Source: Paecilomyces variotii (lineage: Eukaryota). From it: 64,000 nucleotides of DNA. Positions 2,867 to 35,900 of this stretch are shown in pieces. The position numbers were made by a program, and so were the translations under genes. The notes under the pieces are model-generated. The model was not told where the DNA came from, did not search any database, and saw only the letters and a program-made list of their open reading frames with translations. Every line of letters begins with the position of its first letter. Within the stretch, counting starts at the first letter, position 1. The stretch is taken from assembly GCA_004022145.1 (NCBI GenBank), contig RCNU01000002.1. One strand, given 5' to 3'.

Positions 2867-4144
2867 ATGGTCACTCTCCAAAAAGTCCGCGCCAATAATG
2901 CGTCTCTCAAAGAACTAGGCCCAGGCCTCGTTGCTGTCTTTGGTATGTTCTGAAACCACCTCCAATCCTCGCCCCATACCATACCATACCACACCACCGT
3001 CTAGAGATATAGGATAAAATAAAAAAGCCAAAATTGAATCCCTATTAACAAACCCCCATAGTCGGCGGTACCAGCGGAATCGGTGAATCGACCGCCCGCG
3101 AATTCGTCCGCCATACGCTCTCTCCGCGCGTGTATCTCGTCGGCCGCAACGAGACGCATGCATCGCGAATTATCGAAGAACTGTGCTCTCTGAACCCCGA
3201 TGGGAAAGTATCATTTATCAAAAGTGACGTGTCCCTCCTACGCAATGTCGATGAGGCGTGTGAGGATATCAAGAGGAGAGAAGACAAGGTGAACTTGTTG
3301 TTTATGAGTTGTGGGTTCTTGTCTACGAAGGGGAGAGATGGTGAGTTTCTTATTTTCCTTCAATTTCCTTTTTCCCTGCATATTAAGGATGTAAAAGTAC
3401 TGAACTGTGTCAATTTGCACTCTTATCTTTGTGTTTTAACTCATATCAAATCCAGAAACGTCCGAAGGCCTCGACAAGAAACTCAACGTCCATTACTACT
3501 CCCGAATGCGATTCATATACAACCTCCTCCCACAACTCACCGCCGCATCCACCACCACAACAACAATAAATAGCCCCTCCCCTCTATCCCGCGTCGTCTC
3601 CGTCCTGGGCGCAGGCCAAGAAGGCCCCTTGAACCTAACTGACCTCGCGTTAAAACACAACTACAGCCTACGAACATGCGGCGCCCACGCCATCACCATG
3701 AACTCACTCATGACGCACGAACTCGCCTCCCAGAATCCAGGGACGAGCTTCATCCACACGTACCCTGGAGTCGTGAAGACAGGAATCATGCGTGATCTTG
3801 GTCCGCTGGCGCGGTTCGGAGCGGAGGTGTTTTCAGTTCTGGCGAAGCCGTTTTTCGTTCCCCTGGAGGAGAGTGGAGAGAGGCACTTGTATGCGGCGAC
3901 AAGTCAGGTTTTTGTTCCGAAGAGGGATGGGGAGGGTTCTACTGCTGCTGTTGCTGCTGCGGCTGCGGTGGGAAGTGATGGGGTAAAAGGAAGCGGGGGG
4001 TATTTGTTGAATTGGAATGGGGACGTTGTCGGGAAGCAAAATCTATTGAGAAAGTATCGCGAAGAGGGAGTTGGGAAGACGGTGTGGCAGCATACGTTGG
4101 ATGTGTTTCAGAATGTTTGTGGTACGAAGGATGGGAAGTACTGA
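2867..4144 (+). CDS. Short-chain dehydrogenase/reductase-like protein; exons 2867-2942, 3062-3340, 3456-4144
   Basis: Spliced N-terminus MVTLQKVRANNASLKELGPGLVAVFVGGTSGIGESTAREF (GxxxGIG Rossmann motif), SDVSLL, and HTYPGVVKT; canonical introns. Confidence 0.9.
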
Positions 4145-29509: not shown

Positions 29510-31839
29510 TCAGCTCTCCTGGCCTAGCTTGCCTAGCGCTTCGTTCAAGAAGTCATTGGCGTTCATCAACTCCGTACTTCCATACACCACCCTCCGGCGC
29601 CCGTGCAGACCGGAAGATCCAGCTCCAGGGCCTCCCGCACCTCCCGCACCGCCAGCCTGACCGCTCGTCCGCTGCACCCAATCTTGCAAGTTACCGTACT
29701 CGTCCATGCTACCACCGCCAACCGTGAAGACAATGGCCTCGTTGAAGCCTTGTCGCCGTTGACCAAACGTCGCGCTCGTTCCGGGTCCAACGCCTCCCTG
29801 CGGTCCGCCGCCGGGAGAGCGGGACGCGGTGGGTGGCATAGCACCGCGCGCGTTAGAACTCCGTGGATCGAAGTAAAGGTAATCCTCTGTCTTCGCAATG
29901 GCAGAGCTCGAGGCCGAGGCAGGATCCATTATAGACTCGGTGATCTTGGTGAGCGTAAGATCCTTGTTTGCAGGTAGGAAGTTCTTCACCCCCGAAATAA
30001 GGGAGTCGAAGTTGGCCCCCAGGGCACCAGAAGTGATCCGGTCCGTCAGACGGTTGGATAGTGAGGAGAACCCGCGGAAAAGGTCCGACGATTGCTGCTG
30101 GGGTGCACCAGTCGCAGCGCTCGTCATCATCGTCATACGGGTGATTTCGCGAACACGTCTCACGTACTTGATGGAGCTAGTATCGCGGACACCAGCCCGC
30201 GTAAGTGCTTCCTCGAACTGGGTCATCTCATTTCGAGAGAGATCACTCTCAGTACTGAGGAACCAGATAATGAAGAGGCGGAGTTTATCTGTGGGATCAC
30301 TACCCTTGTTCGGATCGTTGATGAGTTCCAAAATCTGTGCTTTGGTCTGCTTCCCGATATTCTCTTCGAGCTGGAAGAAGTTGTCAAGCTGGCGGTCCTT
30401 GATACCTTTCAGCAGAGCGGTAGCGATGTTCATATGCATATCCAATGTCGCCTTGCGTTGGCGCAGCTCTGGAAGAAGCGTGATAGCGGCCTTCAATTGC
30501 TGCGCGGAGGCACTGGTATCATTCTGAAGATCTTCAATGGATGAAGCGCCAGTTTTTCTCGTGATCTCGTTGGCGTCCTCCTTGTACCGAGTCAGCTCTG
30601 TGTCGATATTTTCCGCTACCTGCGGGAATGGGACGCCAGCATTGTTTTTCCAGAAAAAGTCAGTTGAGTTCAAGTCATAGGACCGTTTAGTGGTTCCTTT
30701 CGCTGGGTTGGACTCGTCCACGGGTGTCTCCACTGTAATGCGGTTTAGCCGCATTTCGAGGACGTCCTGAACAAGAGACTGGTATGTCCATGAGTGTGAA
30801 AGCATAGGGACAAGGTCAACACTGCGGTCGACGATTATCAGGACAGGCCTGGAGGAAGGGACCCCAGCAGCACTCTTCTTGCTACCAGAGAACAGGTTGT
30901 CCTTGGAATTAAGAATATGATCGCGTAGTTTTCGGTCAAGCTTGGTTGCAATCAACTCAGCTGGACCGCCCTTGGGACACCGTATAATTGGAATGCTCCC
31001 TATGATTTCAATGAGTAACATGGCCCGTCGAACCAAGAAAAAGGGCCTCACATACCCATGGTAACGCTGACGCTGAATAGCCCGCTCACTATCTTGTCCA
31101 CCGTGGCATCCAGATCCTCATCGGTTGTTTCTGAACTGTTGATCTTCCAGTAGACATCCCTTCCCATTCCCAGACTGAAGAGGTCGGGTTCTGCCACAAC
31201 AAAGTTCAAATATTGATCGTATACTTGTGCGACATATTCTGCCGTCCCCGTCGATGCAATCTGCGACGCGAAATCTTCAAGGAGCGGCCGGGGAATGGAA
31301 GACAAGAAATTTACGTAGGCCGGAGAGTAAAGGCCCCGGGAGAGGTCTGAAGTAATAAGTTGGATATTGACGGGGGTCGGTTCGACTAGGTAGACCACAG
31401 GAACATCTGGAATTGGGTATCGAGGAGAGTTGATGTTCCTAGCAGCGGACGGTCAGTTGCGATGCTACAATAGATACAGGATGAACAAGGAACCGCATCT
31501 TGGGAGCACACATACAAATGAATCGTTACACCCCATGCGCGCAAGTCATTAACCCGCAAAACACTACTAATCACATCTCGGCCCATGTTGTCGAATACCA
31601 GGACCTTCCATATGGGGTCGCCATCTTCATTCAAGATAGGAGTTGACTGTGAAATAAGTCCATTGGTGGACGATTCGTGCGACGTATCCGCGCCATGATG
31701 GGTGTCATGATTCAAGTTAAGTATCTTTTCGATCGATGCTATCGAATGTTGTCAATCTCAGTGAGTTTGGCTGGATTCCTAGAGTGGTGCACAACCTACC
31801 GACCTGACGGTCCCGAAGCGACGCTGGATGCGATGCCAT
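29510..31839 (-). CDS. SLY1: Sec1/Munc18-family ER-Golgi protein Sly1, multi-exon
   Basis: SLRDRQ, WKVLVFD..GRDVISSVLRVNDLRAWGVTIHL, RPVLIIVDRSVDL, DMHMNIATALL, VVYGSTEL. Confidence 0.96.
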
Positions 31840-32989
31840 GGTGGGTGGCAGCTCCAACACTAAACGTTCACGAAGAATGAGCACTCAAGAGAGGCTTCAT
31901 GACACAAGGAAATCGCACAACACACCCCAGTCACCATAAAAACCAGTGCAAGGAACGTCTTGTCTATCAACGCTTCACCAGGTGGCCGCATCGCCCTCAC
32001 CATCCACCTGGCATCCCGAGGAGCTGTCCCCGGCCGTGCTGACATAATCTAGGCAAAACATGCAAACTGCATAGTTACATGTTCTCGCTAGTCCCAAACA
32101 GGCATAGTGACACAACACCTCAAACTGCCCAACCTCACCCAGTCTCTCCCTCTCCTCCGTCCTGTTCCAACAACCACACTGCGACCATCCGATCCTTTCG
32201 TAAAGCGAATGTCTATCCTACTGGATAGCTTTTGAGAATGGCCCTTGGTATGAGGGTTACTTATTTTCTCGTTTAAGGCAAGTTTAGGACGGGAATCACA
32301 ACTGAGCAGGTTGGACGTGCAAAAGTCGTCCGCAGTCACTTGTGTCAGGGAGAGTGAAAAAAGAAAAGGCAGAGTGACCCAGACGTGAGAGGCCAAAAAC
32401 AGTGGGAGGAACTCAGAGGCACTGGATTTCTACATCTACTGTACTTGCCGGTGTATTTGAGATTTTGAATCCTTTGGAAGATCACCGTCTTTTAAAAGGG
32501 CGAGGCAAGCACGCCGTGGAGCGCTTCAAGACCTGGACGCGACCCGCCTGAAGGGATCAGTGAAAGGGGAGGACCTTAAGGACGCCTGAGGCATCTACGC
32601 CGATCTAACGCAACGTGATTCGGTGGGCCTTGTCCCGCGCTTTCTGCCACCGTTCTAAGGCACCTATCTTACCACAGTCGGGACCTCGACTCGCCGCTTT
32701 TTGCGCCACTGTCTGTACCAGCATTTTCTTTTCCCAAGACAACGCATTTTTTCTTTTTTATCTGGCCGTCGTCTACATTCGGCCATTTGCGACTATTCTG
32801 TGCCGTCGTTGCCCAGACTCGCATTATTTGCATGTTGGCTCGCCCGGTCAGAATAATCTAATAAGCTCCACTGGCGTCCCATTTGACTCCGATCTAAAAG
32901 CGGCGAGCGGTGTGCCTTCCGAGAGCACGTGTCAGTCACGTGACCACATTCACTTGGCATCCGCATATACTCTTATCACTGCGCCCAGC

Positions 32990-35900
32990 ATGGAGCAGTC
33001 ATCGGCGCAGAATAATGTGCCTCATATGCATCCTCCATCAGTAACCTCTGGTTCTGTACATCCAGAATATTGGAGCTTGTATTCAGCTGGACCGGACCAG
33101 CAACAGCCATTGGGCAGCGGTTGGAACCATACAGTGTTCCAACAAGCTCCTCAACAACAGCAACAACAACAGAATCATGTGCAACAGATACAAGAGCCTA
33201 ACCAAGGTATCTACTCCCAGAACCCGCCATCCTGGCATCAGAGTCCATCCCTGCAACATCATGCAGTTTCTCAGCAGCATTCGATCTCCCCGGGGCCACA
33301 AGGATATAACATTCCGCCCCAATACCAAATGCAACCTTACCGCCAAGAGCACGTTGCATATGAGCCTCGTTCTCTGACGCCATCCAATCCCCCGGCATAT
33401 GAATCTCCATATAGCTTTGAGCCAAGTTTCTTTCAGCCACACCAGGTTCAGCTGCCGGAGACGTACTCGCAACCGACATCACAAAGCGTACAACGCCAGA
33501 ACACTCAACCATCAAATGTGCCTTCCAACTCTTTCCGGCAGCCTATTACACAGTATCAGATGCATGCTGATTTTCCCGAGAATATTGCGGTATGTCAACG
33601 AATACAGGAATATTCTTATAGGTCTTCGATACTAATGTGGACCAGCATTCTCATGTTAACTTCCCTTCTACTTCTTATCATGAACAGACGCCTAATCTCG
33701 CTTATCAAACGAGCACTATCAACCCGCAGTTCCTTACCACGTCACAGCAGGCATCTAATCAGGCTCATGCCGCTTCTCATCAAAATGAGTTCTTCCAATT
33801 CACCCCCGCTGACTTCGAGCGTCCTGATAACACCAAGTAAGTCTCCCCAGAGCCTATCTCAATACCAGTCAGGAATGCTCATGTTAGGTGTAAGAAACTA
33901 CGAGTTTTATCATCATCAAGACTTTCAGCCAAATGCCCTTAATCAGACAGTTCAACAACATCATGAGCCTACCCAGCAAAGCCAGCTTGACCTGTCTACT
34001 CAGCCTACTATTCCTCAGCTTCTCCAGTTCCGGAACATTACGTCACAGGGTGACAATCAAATACCCGTGATCAAACAAGGTAAGCTCAGATTCTGCTTCC
34101 ATGTAAGCCCTTTAATGTTAACGCGCGTAGACCCCGGTGTAGTGCCGCCGGTGAAGCCTGCGAAAGCAGCCGCACCGAAGAAAAAGAAGTCCAGTCCGAC
34201 AAAGTCGTCGCAGACAAAGGTCAAGAAGGCTACTAGCAAGGCATCTACTAAGAAACAGGGCTCCAAATCTGCCTCTTCCAGTTCTGAGAGCGACAGTTAT
34301 GACGATTCTGATCTTGACATCGAGATACCCGAGGAGCCGTCTCCTATTCCGGCTACTCGTCCGCAGGATCCGGTGGCTGCAGCCGAGTATGATACACTCA
34401 AGGCCGTCTGGTCGCCACGTAATAGGCGACCAGCTGTTGACACAATAAAAACCGCCCTTGTTGCGTTCAAGGATGTCGTCAAATCTGTAAGGGATGCATG
34501 GAAAGAACAGAGCCAGGCCATGAAGGTAGCGGAGAACCAATCCGACAATAACAAGGCAGCCGAGATCAAGAAGAATGTCACTCTTCAGCGCCGGTTAATG
34601 GAGGTTGTTGTCAATACGGCCTTGGAGAAAGGCCATCCGATCATTGTCGAGAAGTATGTCCATGCTGATTCATTTCTTAAACACTTGGCAGAGCGTCATT
34701 GTTTTCATGGGTGTAGATGTCTGCAGCAGAATGAGAGCTACTACCATGTAAACCTGTTAGCGCGGACTCTCGGCCTGCTTTTGAGAAAAGGTATAGATAA
34801 AGGCTGCTGTCTCCATATCCACGGGCTACCGTATGCTTCAAACGAACATGGTATCATCCCAAAAAGCTACGCCGGTATAAAGATCCCGTTAAGATGCAGA
34901 CTGGAAACACCGGTCGAGAAATCACGCGCTATATGGTCATGGAGTACTCTCAGATGCGACAACATGAAAAGACCCAAAGATATTTGTTTCTGCCTCCAAT
35001 TTATCCTTTCCATCTCTTGCCATCATTCTCTTCATGAAGAAACAGTTACTGACCAGATGTCCAGACTAGGTGAACATCCTATGGCTGTTGCGGCAATGTA
35101 TTCTTTTCTCTTGGACCGACACCAGGCTTCTGATTACGAGGGCAATTTAACGGTTAGCCTTCTGAAGGTAAGATCTTCCCATTAATAATTTCTTTCAGTG
35201 CAAGACTAATATGTTGAAAATGATCAGCTTCTGGCTCGCTTTGTGACTATGGATGAAGATGTGCTGCAAAAAACCAATGTTGCAAAGCTTCTGCCCAGGT
35301 TCATGAAAAAGGGCGGGCAAACAGTCAAGGACTTGGCACAAAAGATCATAGATAATGCGGCTGCCTCCACCAAGAGAAAACAGGAAGCGGCAAAGGCACC
35401 GACTAAAGAGCAGCCTCCAGTGAAGACAGCATCTGACACTACTAATGGTACTTCTCAGACTGAACACGGGGTTAAACGTCCTCGTGAGGGTGAAAGTAAT
35501 GGTCTACCAGCCACTAAGCGTGCAGTGACTCCCTCAAATGTCAAGACTGCCACCAATACTGTCACCGGTGCCAGCGCTAGTAGCAATGCCACTGTCCCCA
35601 GTAAACGTCCAGCAGAGGGGAACGCCGATGCAAAAGCAACATCGGCGCCCAGTAACGGAACTGCACTTCGGCCCAAAGCTAATATTGTTGCTCCAAAACC
35701 TACTAGTCTTTTCGGAAGCCTAGCTTCTGCTTCCAAGAGACCGGGCACTTCCAATGCGGCACGCGCTGCTGCTGCTGCGAAGGAAAAAGCGAGGTATGTT
35801 GTGAAAACTCGTGTTGTTCATACGTCGTGTACTGACAATCACAGCGCTGCTGCTGAGAAGAAGGACACTCCGCCTCCACCCCCTCCGAAACCAACATTTT

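Follow-up and report, generated by a model that had tools for sequence, protein, structure and literature searches.

The introns of filamentous ascomycetes are almost all about 50–70 nucleotides (nt) long. Why, then, does a PNUTS-like gene of Paecilomyces variotii carry one of 411 nt, and what might that intron do? The gene lies in a 64,000-nt stretch of contig RCNU01000002.1 (GenBank assembly GCA_004022145.1), hereafter the window, in which positions are counted from the first letter. A first-pass annotation, made from the letters and their open reading frames (ORFs), had noted in the long intron (34654–35064) a nested hairpin and a frame free of stops, and had proposed a cis-regulatory RNA element or an intron-encoded non-coding RNA (ncRNA). 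We found that the segment is a genuine, ancient, oversized spliceosomal intron, and that it interrupts a helical domain of the encoded protein resembling the N-terminal TFIIS-N-type helical domain (TND). We class it, tentatively, as a cis-acting structured, retained intron, which is a known kind of element. Two results go beyond the first-pass annotation: the frame is open in sister species as well, and a conserved block of sequence forms the 5′ arm of the hairpin.

The gene is on the plus strand; its model begins with an ATG at 32990 and has eight introns. The long one is a canonical GT...AG intron in phase 2 relative to the codon, and the remaining seven measure 56, 58, 51, 60, 51, 51 and 54 nt, so that the length outlier first noticed (411 nt versus 51–60 nt) stands in the gene model. 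The features of a U2-type intron, namely GT...AG borders, the fungal 5′ consensus and a CTRAY branch site near the 3′ end, are all present. The 5′ splice site GTATGT (34654–34659) has GTAYGY or GTAATG as its counterpart in all seven orthologues described below; the branch site ACTGAC (35048–35053) has its branch A at 35052, which leaves 12 nt to the 3′ splice site, and CTRAY-type motifs lie near the 3′ end of the orthologous introns as well; the 3′ splice site is CAG (35062–35064), from sequence and gene model. Exon 4 of the model (34131–34653), which encodes the first helices of the TND-like domain, ends in ...GHPIIVE-K(AA/), the slash marking the border, and exon 5 (35065–35167; LGEHPMAVAAMYSFLLDRHQASD...) continues with the next helices of the same domain. 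Removal of the long intron restores the junction ...IVEK-LGEHP..., present in 52 of 80 orthologous proteins, and gives a protein of 1174 amino acids (aa), against 1311 aa with read-through. Protein searches place the window in P. variotii (Byssochlamys spectabilis). The spliced model has the same length as the NCBI P. variotii models, its exon 4 is identical to that of the 1174-aa models P0002 and P0086, and all 10 models of the NCBI P. variotii cluster (1172–1174 aa) call the 411-nt segment an intron. Support for the spliced junction comes from such gene models: no 34653>35065 joint is listed in any of the four sequencing runs examined, in which contigs drop minor forms.

How old is the intron? 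Orthologues were taken from one metagenome scan that returned 11 loci; nine of these span the site and give seven distinct sequences (L003, L004 and L005 are the same), and with the partial intron of L006 the set comprises seven full and one partial intron sequences. By protein identity, L001 is Penicillium-like, L011 is Arthroderma-like, L003 is Thermoascus-like (94% protein identity to T. aurantiacus), L010 is Chaetothyriales-like (64–73% identity to Exophiala and Rhinocladiella), and L002, L008 and L009 are unplaced Eurotiomycete-like sequences. In all seven, which represent Eurotiales, Onygenales and Chaetothyriales, the intron sits at the same codon position and in the same phase, with lengths of 366 nt (L001), 384 nt (L002), 490 nt (L003), 428 nt (L008), 467 nt (L009), 326 nt (L010) and 441 nt (L011). 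The L006 sequence, a further Penicillium-like intron with its 5′ border missing, is at least 421 nt long. The next intron of the gene measures 53–65 nt in the six orthologous loci where it is measurable, and 60 nt in the window.

The first-pass annotation had named two findings that would tell against it: short orthologous introns, and a hairpin left by a multicopy miniature inverted-repeat transposable element (MITE). The seven orthologues, at 326–490 nt, are not short, and the position is an ancient shared one, with a 37-nt core of the arm occurring as a single copy in the 64-kb window when up to 3 mismatches are allowed. The recent, lineage-specific position that marks introner-like elements and MITEs was not found either, the site being the same in seven of seven sequences from three orders. 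Judged by sequence comparison, the long intron is not a recent mobile insertion.

Does the host gene deserve its name? Regulators of PP1 of the PNUTS/Ppn1 type are marked by an N-terminal TND, an RVxF PP1-docking motif and a C-terminal CCCH zinc finger. An AlphaFold (AF2) model made from 25 orthologues is confident only at residues ~395–590, a helical domain with a predicted local distance difference test (pLDDT) score of ~90, and the long intron falls inside one of its short predicted helices (residues 495–503). The best VIA-align match of this domain is the Spn1/Iws1 domain 3nfq (Z 11.9, 145 aligned, root-mean-square deviation (rmsd) 3.8), and comparison with the PNUTS N-terminal domain 7lqt gives Z 9.2 (142 aligned, rmsd 5.0), both within the range (Z below ~13) where a match between helical folds is ambiguous. 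Neither Pfam nor PDB sequence searches of the protein returned a TND, and a Foldseek search of PDB with the full-length model gave only weak 14-3-3-type helical matches (rmsd ~13). An RVxF-type docking motif is present as a motif (...RRLRVTWKPDD...), with R786, V787 and W789 invariant in the 25 orthologues, and a C-terminal zf_CCCH_4 match at residues 1152–1170 scores 25.8 bits against a cut-off of 29, its Cys/His positions being nearly invariant. With an ambiguous TND-like fold, an invariant RVTW and a sub-cut-off CCCH finger, the modelled architecture looks PNUTS-like, in agreement with the first description of the host gene.

What does the additional length contain? The complementary arms described in the first-pass annotation were all recovered at their positions when the sequence was read, and RNAfold reproduced the nested long hairpin. 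Its outer arm pair is TTTTCATG (34702–34709) with CATGAAAA (34963–34970), an inner pair is TAGCGCG (34758–34764) with CGCGCTA (34925–34931), and the innermost pair listed is TCTCGGCC (34768–34775) with GGTCGAGA (34912–34919). The 5′ arm extends over 34702–34775 (MFE, that is minimum free energy, and centroid structures, and the pair list) and the 3′ arm over 34912–34970 (MFE structures and the pair list). The apical region between them (34776–34911) folds into small local stems, is poorly conserved (63 of 136 nt identical to L003) and holds two of the six within-species single-nucleotide polymorphisms (SNPs) of the intron. A further internal hairpin proposed near 34825–34855 is present in the MFE structure, but as one among several small apical stems.

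The margin of the hairpin over chance varies with the test used. When the 5′ half of the intron is paired with the 3′ half, the duplex has a z of −5.4 (0 of 150 shuffles); 26 control segments of 411 nt spread over the window give a mean of +0.43 in the same test (standard deviation 1.06, minimum −1.79). The chosen 281-nt hairpin region folds with a z of −3.18 (1 of 200 shuffles as good), and the whole 411-nt intron with a z of −1.32 (10 of 100 shuffles as good). In the MFE structure of the window intron the 5′ splice site and the branch site are one step apart, closer than in any of 60 shuffles (median 20.5). The hairpin is real and exceptional for its locus.

Is the pairing shared by the orthologues? 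The half-versus-half duplex z is −3.0 in L010, −2.9 in L011, −2.4 in L002, −1.8 in L006 and −1.5 in L001. Values of −1.5 or below thus occur in five of eight orthologues versus one of the 26 controls (Fisher p = 0.001), and the two distributions differ (Mann–Whitney p = 0.0009). Long-range self-complementarity is recurrent, though not universal, in the long intron. Since MAFFT alignments of whole introns or of the hairpin region mis-register the 3′ arms, the fates of individual pairs were counted on our own pairwise alignment. Out of 59 long-range MFE pairs of the window, 35 are unchanged in L003, three are compensatory (34704/34978, 34739/34946 and 34763/34926), five are compatible one-sided changes, 12 are broken and four fall in gaps, so that L003 keeps the core of the hairpin. 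RNAalifold retrieves a UAGCGYG/CRCGCU helix with a C-G to U-A switch. P0117, a Logan ORF from a sister species, differs from the window intron, by minimal back-translation, at 57 nt or more; only nine of these changes, against an expected 16, touch the 118 paired positions (binomial p = 0.018). Few of the P0117 changes fall in paired positions, yet most of the pairs they affect are broken, so the stem is conserved mostly as sequence.

The sequence in question is a block that we call Box A (34702–34766, plus strand), which coincides with the 5′ arm. Its layout is TGTAG (ending at 34716), 31 nt (34717–34747) and GTAAAC (34748–34753), with a consensus of about TCATGGCTRTAGAAGTCTGAAGCGAATTGAGAGC...GTAAAY. 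It is found at 3503–3570 in L003 (52 of 65 nt identical) and at 3481–3550 in L002 (37 of 65), and in an alignment of eight sequences it is recognisable in L009 and, in part, in L008, L001, L006 and L011. The nucleotides in which the window and L003 differ show no concentration at third codon positions, and the constraint on Box A is therefore not of a coding type; RNAalifold on Box A with its flanks found no conserved pairs among the eight sequences.

Gene models that read into the intron extend the range of the block. Extra residues at the junction occur in seven of the 80 orthologous proteins, and models reading through in the same frame reveal Box A in Aspergillus niger (...SLKRIESLSHVIYLVW...) and in section Flavi (...SQKRIESLSRVISLVW...). 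In P0005, P0013–P0015, P0049 and P0059, which belong to A. niger, three section Flavi species, Penicillium paradoxum and P. roqueforti, 29–75 extra residues come from the intron, and the section Flavi models place an 84-nt in-frame micro-exon directly after the YAG of Box A. Such models are probably annotation artefacts, but could be real isoforms. A motif similar to Box A, ATGGCTRYAAnTAARGGC, is seen again ~80 nt downstream in most orthologues.

Is the intron efficiently removed? Among the four runs, X16 is the sole one informative on splicing: X13 is a DNA run, X15 (a run labelled as metatranscriptomic RNA) has an 18.7-kb contig with all introns, from DNA or unspliced RNA, and X17 has one contig that is unspliced into intron 5; the X15 and X17 contigs keep the short introns too and for this reason say nothing about splicing. 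In X16, contigs skip intron 3 (34077>34129) and intron 5 (35165>35226); the removal of intron 6 is shown by a loose end at 35793 that continues into exon 7. The long intron behaves differently. Record 6 is unbroken over 34275–34725, running out of exon 4 and 72 nt into the long intron, and record 8 joins 34970–35165 to 35226–35454, so that the last 95 nt of the long intron are followed by exon 5 and exon 6 with intron 5 spliced out. Depth is 5.2–19.6 in the long intron, 6.55–8.77 in the flanking exons, and 1.9 and 0.9 in the bins of introns 5 and 6. The contigs show that intron-retaining, partly processed transcripts exist in this one sample. The cis-regulatory role proposed in the first-pass annotation, or one in intron retention, is consistent with contigs that are unspliced here and spliced at neighbouring introns; covariation is weak, as detailed below. 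The T>C and A>G differences of the RNA contigs might have suggested A-to-I editing; the same differences are present in the Logan ORF P0001 and in the 18.7-kb unspliced contig, and are strain SNPs.

The retained form would be readable. As the first-pass annotation had it, the segment is a stop-free stretch of 137 codons (411 nt, no in-frame stop), in phase with exons 4 and 5, and there are seven stops in each of the other frames; an open frame was obtained in 12 of 20,000 dinucleotide shuffles. In P0117 the frame is open over an identical length and continues into exon 5; of the 137 insert residues 91 are identical, versus 159 of 174 in exon 4. A second Logan ORF from a sister species, P0118, is open for ~135 codons, with one segment in another frame and a stop at the 3′ splice site. 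Outside Paecilomyces, all seven orthologous introns have 2–9 in-frame stops. Coding-type constraint on the retained segment was not found: five of its six within-species SNPs are non-synonymous, versus two of nine in the flanking exons (Fisher p = 0.04), at about twice the exonic density (six in 411 nt and nine in ~1190 nt); one segment is shifted to another frame in P0118; no relative of the insert peptide except P0117 was found among 1.84 billion representatives, and no Pfam match; and AlphaFold gives the insert pLDDT values of 31–46. The simplest reading may be selection against stops in a frequently retained Paecilomyces intron, rather than for a peptide. An intein was considered and rejected: the segment neither starts with Cys/Ser nor ends in His-Asn, and canonical splice signals are present.

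We tentatively favour, with a confidence somewhat short of even, the reading in which this is an ancient and oversized intron with a regulatory role: it is poorly removed, its long-range stem influences its own splicing in cis, and in Paecilomyces it resembles an exitron. Under this reading the two halves of the intron would pair into a long-range stem, looping out ~270 nt. In an organism with introns otherwise of ~55 nt, the stem would bring the 5′ splice site effectively nearer to the branch site, and would bury Box A along with its motifs resembling splice sites or processing signals. Stem formation would in this way set the ratio of spliced mRNA, encoding an intact domain, to intron-retaining mRNA. 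In Paecilomyces, retention would lead to a 1311-aa protein with an unstructured 137-residue insert within a helix of the domain, and not to a nonsense transcript. What we infer beyond the observations above is the control of splicing by the stem, the regulation of retention and the translation of the retained form.

Several results weigh against this reading. The half-versus-half duplex shows no excess in three of eight orthologues (L009, −0.4; L008, −0.35; L003, +0.4), and whole-intron MFE z values are modest (−1.3, +1.4, −0.9, −3.5, −1.4, −0.8, −1.3 and −2.2). Covariation, the check proposed in the first-pass annotation, turned out weak in both L003 and P0117: out of 20 altered window pairs in L003, eight still pair and 12 are broken, no better than chance, and the eight affected pairs in P0117 comprise two kept, five broken and one ambiguous. 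The distance from 5′ splice site to branch site is not below that of shuffles in six of seven orthologues, being informative for the window only and marginally for L002, and a short Box A probe finds a partner in the downstream intron at p ≤ 0.05 in three of eight sequences only (window, L003 and L011). The antisense strand of the 281-nt region folds about as well as the sense strand (z −3.02), and as both strands fold equally, the strand of the element is taken from the gene. The X16 evidence consists of Logan contigs from one metatranscriptome, of a strain differing by SNPs; contigs cannot establish a lack of spliced transcripts, and part of the signal may come from nuclear pre-mRNA. In scope, the analysis covers one RNA sample in the form of contigs, seven full and one partial orthologous DNA sequences, and the copy number of the arm within 64 kb.

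Some of these points are what one would expect of a neutral relic, an unlikely alternative: an old long intron whose hairpin was left by an inverted duplication or by a mobile intron now degenerate (an introner-like element or MITE) and no longer has a function. Weak covariation, equal folding of both strands as of a DNA palindrome, three of eight orthologues without excess complementarity and an intronic SNP density about twice that of exons all fit such a relic. Introner-like elements and the internally symmetrical (stw)introns of fungi are described as exceeding regular introns in length and as having a stable predicted structure, or terminal inverted repeats that possibly make the RNA double-stranded (PMC3609843, PMC8469720), and the long intron shares with them its length and stable predicted secondary structure. 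Unlike these elements, described there as multicopy, recent and at species-specific positions, it occupies one orthologous position in three orders, and unlike the terminal repeats of (stw)introns its arms lie well inside, the two intron ends being 48 and 94 nt away. A relic also sits poorly with the preservation of position, phase and outlier length in seven of seven orthologues while the neighbouring intron stays at 53–65 nt, with the conservation of Box A into Aspergillus, with the single copy of the arm in the window and with the recurrence of long-range complementarity in L010 and L011, which are otherwise unalignable. Unconstrained fungal introns would, in addition, be expected to shrink.

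The intron could instead host a stable ncRNA owning the block and the stem, such as an H/ACA small nucleolar RNA (snoRNA), a Dicer-dependent microRNA-like RNA precursor or another intron-derived RNA; we regard this as improbable. A conserved sequence block in a deeply conserved intron is what such a host would show, these fungi have intronic H/ACA snoRNAs that are conserved across classes (PMC8216456), intronic depth in X16 equals or exceeds exon depth, and the L009 intron gives one weak Rfam hit, to SNORD15 (E = 0.18; 25 bits, where the gathering score is 75). Yet the Rfam scan suggested in the first-pass annotation (Rfam 15) returned nothing inside the window intron at E ≤ 10 and nothing at gathering score in the window region or the eight loci. 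An arrangement of C box, D box and terminal stem was found in none of nine introns, H/ACA architecture being looked for through Rfam only. The absence of conserved local pairs around Box A in the RNAalifold analysis, and RNA contigs that run continuously from exon to intron and not as a discrete unit, point the same way.

Comparably improbable is premature 3′-end formation, in which Box A (UGUAG/UAUAG ... 31 nt ... GUAAAY/AUAAA) would be a hairpin-masked intronic cleavage/polyadenylation or termination signal by which a termination-factor gene limits its own full-length mRNA. There is a precedent: 3′-end and termination factors autoregulate via intronic premature poly(A) sites, vertebrate PCF11 being an example, and the present case is like PCF11 in that a gene for part of the termination machinery carries a conserved intron of unusual size. 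The UA-containing motifs, which hardly vary, and the interval between them are reminiscent of efficiency and positioning elements in fungi, and X16 depth falls from 19.6 (34704–34767) to 5.2 (34768–34831). Depths are flat per contig, however, and cannot rank the parts of the gene; the motifs are degenerate and differ in the Penicillium-like L001 and L006 (TATATG, TGTACA). Unlike in PCF11, no intronic 3′ ends were observed: X16, the informative run, has no loose end of poly(A) type inside the intron, where the first-pass annotation had suggested looking for poly(A) sites, and in none of the four runs do A-rich loose ends or clustered molecule ends lie there.

Even less probable is a poison micro-exon, for which the YAG of Box A would be an internal 3′ splice site after a first intron of 51–67 nt and GTAAAY a 5′ splice site 29–35 nt further on, inclusion shifting the frame. 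YAG, 31 nt and GTAA follow one another in the window, L003, L002 and L008, the spacing being 35 nt in L009 and 29 nt in L011, and no spacing is a multiple of 3; the stretch upstream of YAG is pyrimidine-rich and of normal fungal intron length, and section Flavi models begin an internal exon directly after YAG. But the +5 G of a 5′ splice site is missing in every sequence (GTAAAC, GTAATT, GTAAAT, GTATCT, GTAGCC), L001 and L006, which are Penicillium-like, have neither motif, and X16 record 6 is unspliced through 34654–34716, with no internal joint listed. Least probable of all is a constitutive coding insertion of 137 residues in P. variotii, not an intron: the frame is open in three Paecilomyces-type sequences, and RNA contigs cross both borders unspliced with no spliced-junction RNA, but the amino-acid-changing SNPs, the out-of-frame part and terminal stop of P0118, a peptide related to P0117 alone, low pLDDT in an insert that splits a helix of a confidently predicted domain, stops in all seven other orthologues, and splice signals that are intact and conserved all speak against it.

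To which known systems, then, does the favoured reading of a cis-acting, poorly spliced intron relate? Long yeast introns such as that of RPS17B/RP51B are reported to need long-range ‘zipper’ stems for efficient splicing (Rogic et al. 2008, PMC2536676). As in the introns described there, one complementary segment follows the 5′ splice site and the other precedes the branch site, the intron is far above the norm of its host, and the two sites are adjacent in the window MFE structure. Unlike them, the stem here is far larger (~60 bp closing ~270 nt) and contains a conserved block, no shortening of distance is seen in six of seven orthologues, and the RNA points to poor rather than efficient removal.

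Exitrons, as Marquez and colleagues reportedly described them in 2015, are in-frame, stop-free introns within coding sequence that are alternatively retained. The long intron is like them in its coding flanks, its length (411 = 3 × 137 nt) without a stop, its canonical splice sites and the presence of a retained form in RNA; the retained form was seen in one run (X16), and the spliced form was not seen directly. A stop-free length of this kind is found in the window and P0117 but in none of the seven orthologues outside Paecilomyces, and the intron thus differs from exitrons in that the trait is confined to Paecilomyces while the intron is ancient and carries stops elsewhere, in the lack of coding-type constraint, and in interrupting a folded domain and not a disordered region. 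No paper with fungal exitrons as its title subject was among the matches listed.

Comparative screens in fungi report structured regulatory introns or elements of untranslated regions (Li & Breaker 2017, PMC5640933; Gao, Jones & Rivas 2021, PMC8216456). Like the elements reported there, the present one is conserved, non-coding and tied to one gene across Pezizomycotina lineages; unlike them, it has covariation far weaker than those screens require. The gene is not named in the main texts of the two papers (‘PNUTS’ and ‘TFIIS’ occur 0 times in both, ‘CCCH’ 0 times in Li & Breaker and in a reference only in Gao et al.), though the supplementary lists could name it. We found no published paper on this intron.

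Other features of the locus deserve mention. The branch site is followed, within 14 nt, by three AG dinucleotides (35055–35056, 35063–35064 and 35068–35069), and only the one ending at 35064 keeps the frame; in a variant strain, 35055 A>G abolishes the first of them. A plus-strand frame at 32609–35185 is open for 858 codons, through exon 1 and introns 1–4 and into intron 5, although from intron 1 to intron 2 the gene itself is read in another frame. ORF-based callers consequently produce long artefactual proteins here, for example the Logan ORFs P0001 and P0083 (718–719 aa). The upstream neighbour, on the minus strand at 29510–31750, has by its ORF translation the look of a Sec1/Munc18-family gene with short introns. 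For annotators the locus carries a warning, as models in A. niger, section Flavi and Penicillium run into the long intron and add residues that are probably spurious.

One may go further and imagine the intron as a conserved sensor with which, throughout Eurotiomycetes, the PNUTS-like/PP1 termination module would control its own dosage. The speed of Pol II or the termination activity, controlled by the factor, would then decide whether the intron halves pair before competing events at Box A, and hence between splicing, retention and premature termination; in Paecilomyces the retained form would have been kept translatable, as a second isoform with a disrupted TND. This is a long shot, and autoregulation by the encoded factor is a purely conjectural part of it.

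An intron that is 5–9 times longer than is usual in filamentous ascomycetes, at one position across three Eurotiomycete orders, with a conserved block inside it, is a probable point of post-transcriptional control, and the product of its host gene looks like a PP1-targeting subunit of the machinery of transcription termination and 3′ processing. If the stem does tune splicing, the locus would offer a tractable fungal model of structure-controlled intron retention and, in Paecilomyces, of an exitron-like in-frame intron.

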